64,000 bases of DNA, taken from the NCBI GenBank assembly GCA_015058945.1, contig SVBF01000007.1:133850-197849 (forward strand), written 5' to 3'. Positions within the stretch are counted from its first letter, which is position 1. Each line of letters opens with the position of its first letter. Made by a program: the position numbers. The DNA is from Erysipelotrichaceae bacterium. GTDB taxonomy: Bacteria > Bacillota_I > Bacilli_A > RFN20 > CAG-826. Positions 24,001 through 39,000 of this stretch are shown here, one piece after another.

Positions 24001-27000
24001 TGTCGCGGAACTGGGTGACGATGTCACTGGAGAGCATGTGGGAATTGCTTCCCGTCACGTAAAGATCTATGTTTGCGACCGAGGCAAGTCCCATGACCAC
24101 GTCGACGAAGGAAATCGTCTGGGCGTCACCCTTCTTGGCTAGGACGATCCGTCCGCCGGTCAGTTCGGGGTTGACGATTTCAAAGACTCGCTGGATCTCA
24201 TCTAGGACAACATAAAGAGTGTCTTGCATCCCTTTTGCCTTTTCTCTGACATAGGTACTGAGGGTTAAGGGGTTGCGCAGATTCGCATTGGCGTCATCGT
24301 CTAGTTCGACAAGAAGGAATTGTTCTTCTTTCACGCCCAAAGAGATTAAATGGCTTTTAAAGATCTCCTTAAGCAAATAGGATTTGCCGCAGCGACGAAT
24401 GCCTGTAACGATCTTCGGGAATCCGTTTCCCATGCTCATTATTAATTGACCTAAATACTTGTCGCGGGGAATCATAACTTTCTCCTTTTTTGTAGAATTC
24501 TACATTTTTCAGGAAAATTATAAAACCCGCTCCACACGAACGCAACGCAGCGCATCGCCTGTTTTATAAGTGGTCTTTGTTTATTAATTCTTTTGAATTT
24601 AAGACCATTTATAAACAATCTGCACTGTCGCTTTTTGGATTTGCAAAGTGCGTTTTCCGCACATTGCTTTGCAGTAGTCAACGAAAAGTAGACACTCCTA
24701 AGCAGTCTGAACATCTCGCGTAGCACCTTCTTCCGGGCATTGAGCGATGTGCGGTGCTACTTACAAGAACACCGCCCTTATCTCGAATTATCCCTCGACT
24801 TAGGAAAAGACGCCTATGCGATCATCGACCCATCCTCGTCCAGCAAATAAAGGAAAGGCCTCTGACCAACCGTCGGAGGCCTTCTCATTTGGAACGATTA
24901 ACTCATTCCGACTTCTTTGGACCCTCGTGGTATCGAGGGAGTTCTGGCATTGGAGTACGATGCGGGATAATCGCGTGGATTTGCGACCTTGAAAGTGTTC
25001 CAAGCAAACAAAACCGGCTTCTATATTGCAGGAATCAAAGGGCCTTGCGATCCAGGGGTTTCAAATAGTCTTTCTTGATTTTCCTCTTTTCGCCGAAGAA
25101 CGCGATTTCGCTCTTGGTAAGGCAATTGAGTTTGCAATGGTAACGGATGAGCTCCATCTCCCCGACGAGATCGGCAACCTGCATGAACGGGTGTTCCGAT
25201 TGAAGGGTCTTCTCGAAACGGGCCTTCAAGAGTTTCGCGCGGAAAGCGCCCAGCACCACCCCCATTAGGAAAGGCTGCCCGTTGTCGTAATGGAGGACGA
25301 TGTCGTCATAGCGCGCGAAAAACGACCGACGCTCTTCTAATGAGCTGAGCAAAGCGTCGGTGAGGGATACCCCGAGATCAAGGCCCGGGCGTTTCTCCAC
25401 CTCCACGGACAGAAGAAAAATCGGGGCATGCATCGCGAGGAGATACAAGCCGTAAAACAGCCTTTGCCTATCCTCTCTTTCATATCCTTTGTAAGGAGGC
25501 TCGTTGCGGACCAACGGGCCAACGTGTACGAAATCCCCGGGAAGGGAGCTTTTCTTCCTATCGAAATCGAATTTGCGAAGCGCGGGAGCACATGCTTCTG
25601 CGTCATCGGCCAAAACGAAACAAACCGCATAGAACGGATTGGTTTTCGAATAGGGGCTGAGGTCCCCGCTTTCGTCAAGGTAGATGTCGAGGCGCTTCAT
25701 GATCTTTAGTATAGAAAAGCGGGATTAATTTCCCGCACTTCGGTGATCCCCAGGAATTGCTCCTGCGACCATCCATAATATACCCTTTGCCCAAACAAAA
25801 AACAATATGCGCGAATGGCTTTGGAGCAGGATTCCAAAGTGCTTCAGGAAAACAGCGTTTTGGAGGCTGAGAAAAGTCTTGCTTCGGAAAAAATGGTCCG
25901 ATTTAAGTGGTATTATCGTGGTAGTCGTTTTTGGATTTGTTCGATGCTTTCTAGTTATTCTTTATCGACCTATGCGCAACGCCTTAAGAAATCATCCAAT
26001 GTATCAATCAGTTCTTTGCTTGGCCCATGGGGAAGCGAGGATGCCTCGGATAGGATTGAACGAATTGCACTGAAGTGGTCAGCCGTGTTTCTCAATTGCT
26101 CTTGAAGGGCTTCGGCGTTTGCGGAAGAGGCGAGTCTAAGCGGATTATACAACTGCCGCAACTGTCGCCAACTCTCGCCAAGTCCTGCCAACTCCTGCCA
26201 ACTCCTGCCAAGGATGCTCCGCCTGTCCTGTTGCTTGTACTGCATCCCTTCGGCATTCGCAAAAACGAAAGGACCCCGCTTCCGAGGTCCATCGTTGTCG
26301 GACAACTCTTCGTGTCTATTTATCTCTTGATCGCCGCGTGGGACAACGGGATTTCTGCATATCGTGCCTGTTGTTCAAAGGCATGGGCTACGAACCGTCG
26401 CGAGATGGGTCATCGCTTGCCCATTTTCGCCTTTTGGATATCCATTGAGGCTATCGCTTTGGTTGGTTGTTTGCCCCAATCCCGTTGAGAGCCGTGCGTT
26501 TATGACTGATAGGCGACCCACTGCCCCGTGACGCCGGGATCGCCCCAGATGGGCGAGGTGACCGCGGAAATGTCATATAAAGGCGTGGCGGCATCGATAT
26601 CCGCGATCGTGATATTGATGGTCTTCGCGCCGTAATCGGACAAATCGTTCGGGCCGATGCGAGTGAAGATGAGATTGGTGTAATCCAACGCGGGATCAAA
26701 AGTGTATTTCCAGATGCCGTTGCCGAGACTTTCCATGGCTTCGCCTGGCCAATTCGCGTTCTTGTTATCGTCTTTCCATAAATAGATGCCGGAACGAGCG
26801 CTGTCTTGGGCCCACCATTCCGCGTCTTTGAAGTATACGGCGGAAAGCGTTGCGGGAGCAGCTTTGGTGAAACCCTTTTCGTCAAAATAACGGATGACTT
26901 TCGTCTCTTCGGTGCCCGTGTAGGTGAAAATGCCCGAATAGTTGACTTTGTCGCCGGCGGCGAAAGTGCCTTCGGGAAGTTTCTCGGCGACGCTGAGCTT

Positions 27001-36000: not shown

Positions 36001-39000
36001 CGAAATGGGTTAAGTTGTTTATGCCAATGATCAGGGAGTAGCCGCGATACTGGCCCTCAGGCTGCGGATGCGCCTCCACAAACCTTTCATTCTGCCCGAA
36101 GGCGACCGACCAGATTTCCGACGGCGCAACCGTCGTGTGGATGGGGTCGGATACGCCGGTTGTGACATCAACGTCTTGAACAACCGGAATGGACTCGAAC
36201 TGGGATCCGGTGGCGGCGTTGAAGGTGAAGATTTTGCTCGTGGCCTTGGCCTCGAAGATGGCGTTTAGCTTCGGGCCTCCGCCGAGGGCCAGCGTGGCGA
36301 CGACAGCAGCGCAGCCGAGGACGGCCAGCGACGCGATTACTACTGTTCTCTTCATTTTCTTGACCTCTATGTAGGTAAAACCGTTTAGGGTTGCCGAATT
36401 ATAGGGAAAAGAGGGCGAAAAAGGCAAACAAAGGCGGATGACTGTTTCAATTTGAAACGTCGACCATGCCTTTAGACAAGGGAAAGGGGCCGACGGCTCA
36501 TTCGCCGCATCGGCCCCTCGGGTTCATTTCTTGCCGTAGAGCCTCTGGAGTATCTCCGTGGCCTTCCGCATCGTCGCCTTCTCCTCCTCGGAGATGGATC
36601 CCACGACGAAGTTGTTATAGAAGAGCCAGTCAAGGGGGCGTCGAGTACCATCGACATCTTGAAGAAAGGCATCGCGGACTTCGGGAACGTATCCGCGGTC
36701 TCCCAGTGGCTCGAGAAGAAGGAGCCGGGCAAGGTCCGCTTCGTGTTCGTGATGCGCTCCTGCAACGACATGCGCACCTGGCAGCAGTTCATGACCACCG
36801 TGTCGCAATAAGCCTTACATAAGGTAAATGAAAAATACGCGTTTTCAATCGTGCGCCAACCAAAATGCCTCGAAAACCGTGGCAATATCGTGAGACAAAT
36901 TCTTCAAAAATCAAATAAAGTGCCGATGACATCGACACTCTTTGCACAAATGGAGCACGATGCGGATCGCCAACCCTACATTTGCTTCTCATTTTTAAGC
37001 AGATAATTTACTTTTTAAGCAAATAAAACGATGTTTACGAAGCCAACACTCAATCGTTTTCGTCTTTCCTCGTCAGCAGGAAAATGGCTTTTTGGCGCTC
37101 AATCTCGTTTCTAAGTTCCGTCTCGTCCGGCATGTATGTTTTGTATTTCGCCGCGAAGATCTGCTCGTTTCCCTTAAGCACGCTATAACGGGCGATGTCC
37201 TCATCGGTCTCCGCGCACAAAAGGATGCCAAGCGTAGGATTGTCATCCGCGCCCTTGATCCTCTCGTCATACATGCGGACGTACATATCCATCTGCCCGA
37301 CGTCCTGGTGTTCGATCTTCTTGGCCTTGAGGTCGACGAGCACGAAGCAGCGAAGGAAGTAATTGTAGAAAACGAGGTCGACGTAGTAGTCCTTCTTCTC
37401 CGTGTGGATCCTCTTTTGCCTTGCGACAAAGGCATAGCCCTTCCCCATTTCGAGCAGGAACTGCGCCAAATGGTCGATGATGGCCTGCTCGAGTTCCGTC
37501 TCGTCGGGCCGTTCCGGATTTGGCAAACCGAGGAATTCCGCCACGAAAGGGTTCTTCACGTACTCAAGCGGATCCTTTGAGGGAGCGATTCCCTGAGGCA
37601 GCGCAGGCAGGCCGCCACTTTGGGTGGAGAGCAATCTTTCGTAGTATTGACTATGAATCGCCCGCTGCAGGTCGCGGACGCTCCAGCCAGAGGCAAGCGC
37701 CTCCTTTTCGTAATAGGGCCTTGCCACATCGCTATCGACGCGGATCAATAAAGCATAATGAGACCACGAGAGGAAAGAATTTCCAGACAGCGTTTGGAAA
37801 ATGTTGGGGAAAAGCCTATAGAAACGAACATAGGTATAAAGGCTGGATTTGTCGAACCCGCTTCCGAATTTTTCGGTCAAAAACGCCGATAGCTTCTTGA
37901 TAATCGACTTCCCATAGTCGTTGGCTCTCGTCGAGAGAATCTCCTCGTCAATGCGCTTGCCGATTAGATGGTTTCGCCGCAATAGTGCGATATTGATAGC
38001 ACGCACCGCGTCTCGCTTCGATGCCTCGACGATGGCGGAAACATCGGCGGAGACGTCCCCGGACTTGGACACCGAGAAAGCGGGCATAGCGATCATCTGA
38101 TTGCCGGCGACGATTTCCTCATAAAGCGCGTTGACCTTCGCCGCCGTTTCGTAATTGGGGCCGAAATGCCCATTCTCCAATCTGTTGACCGTGGAGAAGC
38201 TGACGCCCAGACGCTTTGCCATATCGGTTTGCGACAGTCCGAGCGCCCTGCGGACCGCGATGAGTTTCTCTTTGAATTCCATGAAAGAATTATATCGCAT
38301 TAATGCTATATAAACAAGGGGCCTTGCGCAAAATTGCATCACGCGGTTCCGGTGCGCCTACAAATGTCGATATGCATCCAGTACATGCGTCAAAGATTCC
38401 CCGCACTGCTTCATTTGCATGGAACGTCCCGGACGAAACAACATCGGAGCACTACATAGTCATCGTGCTTCTGAACTGCATTGGTGGCTTGTAGTTTTCA
38501 GCCACCAACCTCGATTTTTTGCGAAAATTGGTATGAGGGTGGTATGGAGAGACGTCTGCTGTTCCGGATTTAATAAGCGCGATCGGGTGAATTTGGAGCG
38601 CAGGAATCACGATGCGGGTCGCAGCAATGCATAAACTGACAAATACTGACAGAAACTGACAAGAGGTTTCGTCATGGCTACGAATCCGTTTACCCTCATG
38701 TTTTCTCACAATCCCATGACGCAACATCGTCTCGGAGGTTTACTCCGACTTCTCCAGCCCATTTATAGAAAACGCAAGCCGTCCCCAGTGGCGGCTTTTT
38801 GCAAGGAATACACAAAAACTACACAAAAACTACACAACGGAAAAATAAAAATGCCGAGTTTATCGGCACTTTTTGATTAGTGGAGCACGATGCGGGAATC
38901 GAACCCGTATAACCAGCTTGGGAAGCTGGTGTTCTACCACTGAACTAATCGTGCGGGCAGGGATAAATCTAGCTGTTTTATCCCGTATTGTCTAGCCGTT

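Follow-up and report, generated by a model that had tools for sequence, protein, structure and literature searches.

The stretch analysed here, a 64-kb window of the genome of an Erysipelotrichaceae bacterium (GenBank assembly GCA_015058945.1, contig SVBF01000007.1), carries five exact copies of a 15-bp dyad, GTTTC-N5-GAAAC, which we read, with a probability of about 0.72, as the operator bound by the response regulator encoded next to it (33044-33649) and as a site from which this regulator would activate transcription. The regulator joins an XRE-type helix-turn-helix (HTH) domain to a receiver, its gene is followed by that of a membrane histidine kinase, and the dyad stands before genes for lipoproteins, small membrane proteins and a secreted protein. 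An earlier note, made from the sequence of the window alone, had proposed the XRE-type regulator as the cognate binder of the dyad. This inference now appears strongly supported by the conservation of the motif in 14 of 14 orthologous loci, by altered half-sites beside a paralogous regulator and by covariation between regulator residues and operator bases.

An exact search of the window returned these five copies and no others (Table 1), while dinucleotide-shuffled sequences gave a mean of 0.12 and a maximum of one, none of 100 shuffles yielding two or more. All five are intergenic, lie in the same orientation before minus-strand start codons and read GTTTCAA-nnn-GAAAC in the direction of their targets. 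The earlier description of five palindromes 60-100 bp ahead of minus-strand starts is thus borne out by the search, the shuffles and the distances. Matches with one mismatch occur three times (16327, 25232 and 49025), which is the level expected by chance, and these fall inside long open reading frames (ORFs).

The motif is conserved beside the regulator gene. When one genome per species was scanned, relatives of the regulator turned up at 22 loci, every one of them in uncultured Bacilli, Erysipelotrichaceae or Clostridia of the rumen or gut, and the counts for orthologous loci cover the 14 that include upstream DNA. In every one of these 14, the exact motif occurs 75-104 nucleotides (nt) before the regulator gene, across regulator protein identities of 63-94% and genomic GC contents of 34-53%. 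The site that the earlier note had placed in the divergent region shared with the regulator and kinase genes does lie there, and it is this position that is conserved throughout. The orthologous loci together, 148 kb of DNA, hold 17 exact sites against 0.16 expected. All 22 sites, five from the window and 17 from the orthologous loci, are upstream of genes in one orientation, and read toward the target they share an extended, asymmetric consensus, AAAAn-GTTTCAAYYYGAAAC-ACT (that is, AAAAn-GTTTCAATYYGAAAC-ACT).

The gene across the site from the regulator varies. It encodes the 175-amino-acid (aa) lipoprotein in the two closest genomes (loci L001 and L002), and elsewhere either a BspA-like repeat protein or a surface protein of 650-1223 aa bearing both a signal peptide and, at its C-terminus, a membrane anchor. 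In UBA7278, the closest genome (94% regulator identity), only the genes for this lipoprotein (Lpp175), the regulator and the kinase are shared with the window, and the other four sites with their genes are therefore strain-specific additions. The array in the window is flanked by an AAA_14/DUF4143 ATPase gene (23171-24475) and a DUF3800 gene (25035-25700). In the closest genome (L001 8139-9663), the ATPase gene directly follows the kinase gene, so that about 8 kb with four of the five sites are an insertion or rearrangement relative to that genome.

Each window site stands at a set distance from a promoter. At sites 1-4, a -10 hexamer (TATAAT or TAGAAT) begins exactly 29 nt past the motif edge, and at site 5 TATAAT begins at 40 nt, or 29 + 11, one helical turn further. 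In a multiple alignment of the five promoter regions, the invariant parts are the motif and the -10 hexamer only, which argues for independent sites and not copies of one duplicated module; with flanks unrelated, duplicated promoter modules were rejected as the source of the five copies. The -35 position starts 6 nt after the motif, and the hexamers found there in the window are poor (AAGAAC, GTTAAC, GCTAAC, TAGAGC). Given the fixed spacing between motif and -10, the 15-bp site spans about -56 to -42, and this constant place just upstream of a weak -35 and a strong -10 suggests an activator-type position. We also considered TGAAAC as a -35 element for an extracytoplasmic function (ECF) sigma factor, and rejected this reading because the element is a dyad and is followed, after 29 nt, by TATAAT-like -10 hexamers.

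On the other side of site 4, toward the regulator gene, TAAAAT lies 25 nt away, and across the loci -10-like hexamers occur on that side either 25-29 nt or 43-50 nt from the site. This spacing is compatible with autoregulation, though less uniform than the spacing toward the targets.

The predicted binder has the architecture that the earlier note had assigned to it, an XRE-type HTH and a receiver encoded next to a kinase, as Pfam searches confirm. HTH_3 (E = 1.2e-11, with HTH_31 and HTH_19 also matching) covers residues 7-71 and Response_reg PF00072 (E = 1.2e-14) residues 77-190. The AlphaFold model (mean predicted local distance difference test score, pLDDT, 84) places the HTH helices at residues 7-17, 22-27, 33-40, 48-58 and 62-71, followed by a beta-alpha receiver fold. 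The recognition helix, the third of the HTH, is accordingly residues 33-40, which makes residues 33 and 38 its positions 1 and 6. The HTH has sequence matches to SinR and ImmR-type structures. Receiver residues D82, D83, D128, T156 and K176-P177 are invariant in 39 homologues, and the best matches in the PDB are receiver domains, those of BtsR, LytR and MrkE being most alike, a likeness that fits a partner kinase of the PF06580 type.

The kinase has 6-7 predicted membrane helices with short loops, and its H, N and G boxes are intact. Its N-terminal 235 aa match no Pfam sensor domain, 5TMR_LYT included, even at E <= 1. Of the 'LytS-like sensor' proposed earlier, the PF06580 core therefore stands and a LytS-type sensor domain does not, so that 'LytS-type' applies to the kinase core only. 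NCBIfam has no model at cut-off for either protein, and the PDB has no entry with the HTH_XRE-REC architecture. Relatives of the regulator are nevertheless numerous: at E <= 1e-30, 46 clusters match in a library of 1.84 billion representatives, where full-length relatives, some with only about 30% identity, number in the dozens, and a 90%-identity database gave 2352 matches.

The two genes are duplicated together: a second pair of the same kind lies near the start of the window, 54% (regulator) and 47% (kinase) identical to the pair at 33 kb. The divergent intergenic region beside it contains the only exact GTTCC-N5-GGAAC of the window, a candidate variant operator. With two site types in one window, each beside its own regulator, the DNA provides an internal control against a shared, unrelated factor. 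A metagenome scan with the paralogue yielded 80 loci, in which the closer relatives have GTTCC-N5-GGAAC or symmetric variants (GTACC-N5-GGTAC) at the same place. Where further sites occur in a locus, they match the type of the local regulator (three more in L037, one more in L017). The strict palindrome search missed many sites in relatives of 60-68% identity, where inspection showed GTTCC-AGATT-GTCAA. The order of motif, 6 nt, -35 element, 16-17 nt and -10 element, with 28-29 nt from motif edge to -10, is the same in the window, in the clade of the paralogue and in this third clade. In both of these clades the arrangement points to the gene transcribed away from the regulator gene, and in that of the paralogue the -35 hexamers are TTGnnn.

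When the HTH regions were aligned by site type, operator bases and recognition-helix residues were found to change together. The helix R-S-S-V-A-N-W-E-A-D-R-R accompanies GTTTC..GAAAC in all 19 loci where an element could be detected, GTTCC..GGAAC is paired with T-R-x-T-x-A-R-W-E, and GTTCC..GTCAA with N-H-S-T-x-A-R-W-E. Considered by residue 38 alone, Asn38 ('ANWE') occurs with xTTTC..GAAAx in 19/19 loci, and Arg38 ('ARWE') with xTxCC in nearly all. A neighbour-joining tree indicates two or more independent origins of Asn38: L093 groups inside the Arg38 clade (72% identity to L079), yet it has 'IANWESGRR', and its site is TTTTCAGATTGAAAA. We take residues 33 and 38 to be the counterparts of the base-contacting Gln28 and Gln33 of the 434 repressor. 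Pairing of asparagine with adenine and of arginine with guanine is a classical contact between protein and DNA.

Some features of these relatives are worth recording in their own right. In L037, a metagenomic relative of the paralogue, three further GTTCCATTCTGGAAC sites with similar flanks, about 320 nt apart (3844-4505), lie downstream of the kinase gene; each precedes a TTGAGx -35 and a -10-like hexamer, so that they form tandem operator-promoter modules. The third clade (L043, L046, L069 and others; helix 'NHSTxARWE') is the largest of the family, and its site reads TTGACAATCTGGAAC toward the divergent gene. The distal half of this site matches the sigma-70 -35 consensus TTGACA, though not at the -35 position, and relatives with 'YHST' have TTGCCA in place of TTGACA.

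Taken together, these features suggest the following mechanism. The membrane kinase (33646-34923), sensing a probably membrane-associated signal, would phosphorylate the C-terminal receiver of the regulator. Dimerisation driven by the receivers would then set the two N-terminal XRE HTH domains on the half-sites, whose centres are 10 bp apart, one helical turn. Residues 33 and 38 of each recognition helix would read the bases, Asn38 reading the A/T pair that separates GAAAC from GGAAC. The bound dimer would lie 6 bp upstream of the -35 position, on promoters with a weak -35 and a near-consensus -10, and from there may activate the local genes for lipoproteins, small membrane proteins and the secreted protein, and probably its own operon too.

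A broader proposal, to which we give slightly better than even odds, is that both regulators of the window belong to a so far uncharacterised family with inverted domain order (XRE HTH, then receiver) and PF06580 partner kinases, in which positions 33 and 38 would form a simple, evolvable operator code (Asn38 for A/T, Arg38 for G/C). The paralogues would be insulated from each other at the level of DNA, and in rumen and gut Firmicutes each would activate its own fast-turnover cassette of surface-protein genes from an unusual fixed position, 6 bp upstream of the -35 element.

Several points weigh against an activator acting through a symmetric operator, or narrow what it would explain. A site centred near -49 occupies neither the textbook class I nor the class II activator position. 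The -35 hexamers of the paralogous clade are reasonably good, which makes dependence on an activator less obvious there, and in the window the TATAAT nearest to the paralogue's own site is at a distance of 36 nt instead of 29 nt. A simple symmetric homodimer does not account for the asymmetric site of the third clade. Since a regulator gene is passed on along with the DNA upstream of it, the covariation amounts to only two or three independent events and could reflect hitch-hiking. Within the array, a terminator-like hairpin (31960-31987, minus strand; 12 bp with a T-rich tail) interrupts an otherwise operon-like run in the gap between TM111 and the S41-peptidase gene, which makes control of the S41 and TM114 genes, and with it their membership in the regulon, uncertain.

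The most serious competitor, still an unlikely one, keeps the regulator as the binder and reverses the sign: a dimer, phosphorylated or not, would block RNA polymerase, and its release would allow expression. Most characterised XRE-family proteins are repressors, the good -35 hexamers of the paralogous clade agree with such a role, and site 4, only 25 nt from the regulator-ward TAAAAT, overlaps the -35 position of that promoter. Toward the targets, however, the whole site lies ahead of the -35, at a constant distance of 6 nt in three clades, and never overlaps the -10 or the start region; the window -35 hexamers are poor, and the shift of site 5 by one turn matters for activation from one face of the helix and not for occlusion. 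Considerably less probable is that another factor binds the motif and merely has the two-component genes in its regulon. A candidate exists, because a further HTH_3 protein, the HTH_3-DUF1016 protein (37050-38342), is encoded 600 nt from site 5. Against this, the site keeps its place by the regulator gene in all 14 orthologous loci despite differing neighbours, each of the two site types in the window accompanies its own regulator, and the half-site changes with the clade of the regulator and with residue 38, the independent switch in L093 included.

We see very little chance that the palindrome acts as a hairpin in RNA or DNA, whether terminator, processing site or attenuator. The copies can fold into stems of 5-9 bp (-4 to -13 kcal/mol), a terminator scan flags site 1 (27684) on the plus strand, and symmetric changes in the arms would also preserve a stem; but the sites are upstream of the -10 hexamers, no U run follows them on the minus strand, and site 4 folds no better than shuffled sequence (z = -0.9). 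As no Rfam family was found in the region, and given the folding result, a known RNA family or terminator was rejected, and a stem would leave both the 29-nt phasing and the covariation with protein residues unexplained. Finally, the view that the five copies are a functionless chance cluster, or remnants of duplicated modules, can be regarded as refuted: the motif is short, with ten specified bases, yet no shuffle produced two matches, the flanks are unrelated and the motif is conserved over genomes of very different GC content.

If the dyad is an activator site of the regulator, its local targets would be those marked as such in Table 1. In L001 and L002, too, the Lpp175 orthologue is transcribed away from the regulator gene, and the Lpp-S41 arrangement is also present in L002. 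TM151 is probably co-transcribed with Lpp142, the length of which (142 aa) is counted from an ATG with a Shine-Dalgarno sequence. Terminator-like hairpins follow Lpp372 (26271-26290) and the gene for the 205-aa protein (35568-35592). Pfam and NCBIfam contain no family for Lpp142 or the 205-aa protein, the small membrane proteins had no match in Pfam even under relaxed thresholds, and NCBIfam has no model at cut-off for the target proteins. The products are as the earlier note described them, with lengths corrected from 'Lpp157' to 142 aa, from 'TM112' to 111 aa and from 'TM142' to 151 aa. Its phrase 'envelope-remodelling regulon' is speculative and serves as a label only, the targets being heterogeneous: lipoproteins and small membrane proteins here, surface proteins of 650-1223 aa elsewhere.

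Table 1. Candidate operators, promoter elements and genes of the two regulatory systems, in window coordinates.
Feature	Coordinates	Strand	Remarks
Operator site 1 (candidate)	27684..27698	-	GTTTCAACATGAAAC target-ward; upstream of Lpp372; exact match; motif edge 65 nt from start codon 27618
Operator site 2 (candidate)	28794..28808	-	GTTTCAATCCGAAAC; upstream of Lpp142 and TM151; exact match; 92 nt from start codon 28701
Operator site 3 (candidate)	29338..29352	-	GTTTCAATATGAAAC; upstream of TM76; exact match; 100 nt from start codon 29237
Operator site 4 (candidate)	32956..32970	-	GTTTCAATCCGAAAC; divergent region of Lpp175 and regulator gene; exact match; 60 nt from start codon 32895
Operator site 5 (candidate)	36444..36458	-	GTTTCAAATTGAAAC; upstream of 205-aa secreted/anchored protein; exact match; 88 nt from start codon 36355
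-10 TATAAT, Lpp372 promoter	27649..27654	-	29 nt downstream of site 1
-10 TATAAT, Lpp142 promoter	28759..28764	-	29 nt from site 2; promoter scan TTAACG-16-TATAAT
-10 TATAAT, TM76 promoter	29303..29308	-	29 nt from site 3; promoter scan CTAACA-16-TATAAT
-10 TAGAAT, Lpp175 promoter	32921..32926	-	29 nt from site 4
-10 TATAAT, 205-aa protein promoter	36398..36403	-	40 nt from site 5; promoter scan TTGCCT-18-TATAAT
Response regulator, 201 aa	33044..33649	+	Proposed motif binder; N-terminal HTH_3 (XRE), C-terminal receiver
Histidine kinase, 425 aa	33646..34923	+	PF06580 8.1e-16, HATPase_c 3.5e-8; 4-nt overlap with regulator gene
Paralogous pair	3047..4905	+	Regulator 3047-3643, kinase 3640-4905; same Pfam architecture
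Variant operator (candidate)	2858..2872	.	GTTCCGAAGTGGAAC; GTTCC-N5-GGAAC type; divergent intergenic region
Lpp372 lipoprotein, 372 aa	26500..27618	-	Predicted target; LASC lipobox; Pfam CBM26 (starch-binding module) 8.7e-9
TM151 membrane protein, 151 aa	27783..28238	-	ORF, hydrophobic sequence; no motif between TM151 and Lpp142
Lpp142 lipoprotein, 142 aa	28273..28701	-	Predicted target; LASC lipobox
TM76 small membrane protein, 76 aa	29007..29237	-	Predicted target; ORF with two hydrophobic segments
TM114 membrane protein, 114 aa	29473..29817	-	Downstream of S41 gene
S41-peptidase lipoprotein, 647 aa	29948..31891	-	Pfam Peptidase_S41 4e-14; LTAC lipobox; without own motif
TM111 membrane protein, 111 aa	32003..32338	-	Operon with Lpp175; TM114 paralogue (40% identity, E = 6e-19)
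Lpp175 lipoprotein, 175 aa	32368..32895	-	Predicted target, conserved and divergent in two closest genomes; LASC lipobox
205-aa secreted or membrane-anchored protein	35738..36355	-	Predicted target; N-terminal signal or anchor

The surroundings of the two systems hold further features. Two genes are divergent from the paralogous pair. One encodes a membrane protein of 221 aa (2117-2782), the other a lipoprotein of 537 aa (526-2139) in which Pfam recognises a thiol-activated cytolysin (CDC) domain (E = 8e-51); for a rumen commensal, two-component control of such a CDC-like lipoprotein would be unusual. Between 8000 and 12000, GC content is 0.41-0.42, against about 0.53 window-wide, and this stretch may have been acquired horizontally. 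The HTH_3 protein beside site 5 is a 430-aa fusion of HTH_3, DUF1016_N and a YhcG-type PDDEXK nuclease. Near its gene are those for tRNA-Gly-CCC (38881), tRNA-Val-GAC (39868) and tRNA-Thr-CGT (40085), and a 263-aa DUF4234 + DUF2188 protein is encoded between tRNA genes (38992-39783). The segment 35083-35289 was considered as a pseudogene fragment of an AAA_14 ATPase gene and dropped, the match being weak (E = 0.012).

If confirmed, these proposals would supply a DNA site, a promoter architecture and a target set for a response-regulator subfamily without a characterised member, whose thousands of sequences in rumen and gut metagenomes form dozens of clusters when grouped at 50% identity. They would also provide a case of operator-level avoidance of cross-talk by duplicated systems, with a change from Asn to Arg paired with a symmetric one from A/T to G/C, and would suggest that uncultured Bacilli and Clostridia of the rumen express variable surface proteins under the control of a signal. 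No new regulatory principle is involved.

The HTH and its presumed operator recall the 434 and lambda cI repressors and SinR, with which the regulator shares the five-helix HTH_3 fold and half-sites one helical turn apart. Lambda cI, too, can act as an activator when bound immediately ahead of a -35 hexamer. The window system differs in that dimerisation would come from a phosphorylatable receiver and not from a C-terminal oligomerisation domain, and in its non-prophage context.

The statement of the earlier note that it knew of no described XRE-REC response regulator with a defined palindromic operator controlling a lipoprotein battery goes too far. In Myxococcus xanthus, the REC + HTH_Xre regulator DigR has a palindromic operator defined by footprinting, TAATC-N14-GATTA, found at variable promoter positions, and its regulon is rich in secreted and extracellular-matrix proteins (PMC3509222). 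XRE-class regulators are also listed, uncharacterised, in a two-component census of Clostridium tetani (PMC7290440), and literature phrase searches for XRE-type response regulators returned nothing beyond these two reports. DigR, the partner of the kinase SgmT, resembles the window regulator in being a two-component response regulator with an XRE-type DNA-binding domain. The palindrome in its operator implies that it binds as a dimer; in the window, a palindromic motif, the candidate operator, precedes genes for lipoproteins and secreted proteins. In DigR, however, the receiver is N-terminal (phosphorylated at D53) and the HTH C-terminal, the reverse of the order seen here. Its sites follow a 5-N14-5 geometry at variable positions, whereas the window motif, a predicted operator, is 5-N5-5 at a fixed position. 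SgmT, in turn, is a hybrid kinase of the cytoplasm that carries GAF and GGDEF domains, unlike the polytopic membrane kinase with a PF06580 core in the window. What appears to be new, then, is an uncharacterised subfamily of inverted order with a PF06580 kinase, for which predictions now exist of the operator, the geometry of the promoters, the local targets and, as a candidate, a specificity code.

Among two-component systems, LytS/LytR, BtsS/BtsR and YesM/YesN are similar in the PF06580 + HATPase_c core of the kinase, in adjacent, overlapping genes and in the receiver (BtsR, LytR). They differ in that the output domain in the window is an N-terminal XRE HTH and not a C-terminal LytTR or AraC domain. 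In addition, LytTR regulators recognise direct repeats, whereas the window site is an inverted repeat, and no 5TMR_LYT is detected in the window kinase. The only full-length structural matches with the output domain first and the receiver last are to PhyR, in which the output domain is sigma-like and works by partner switching, in contrast to the DNA binding proposed for the regulators described here.

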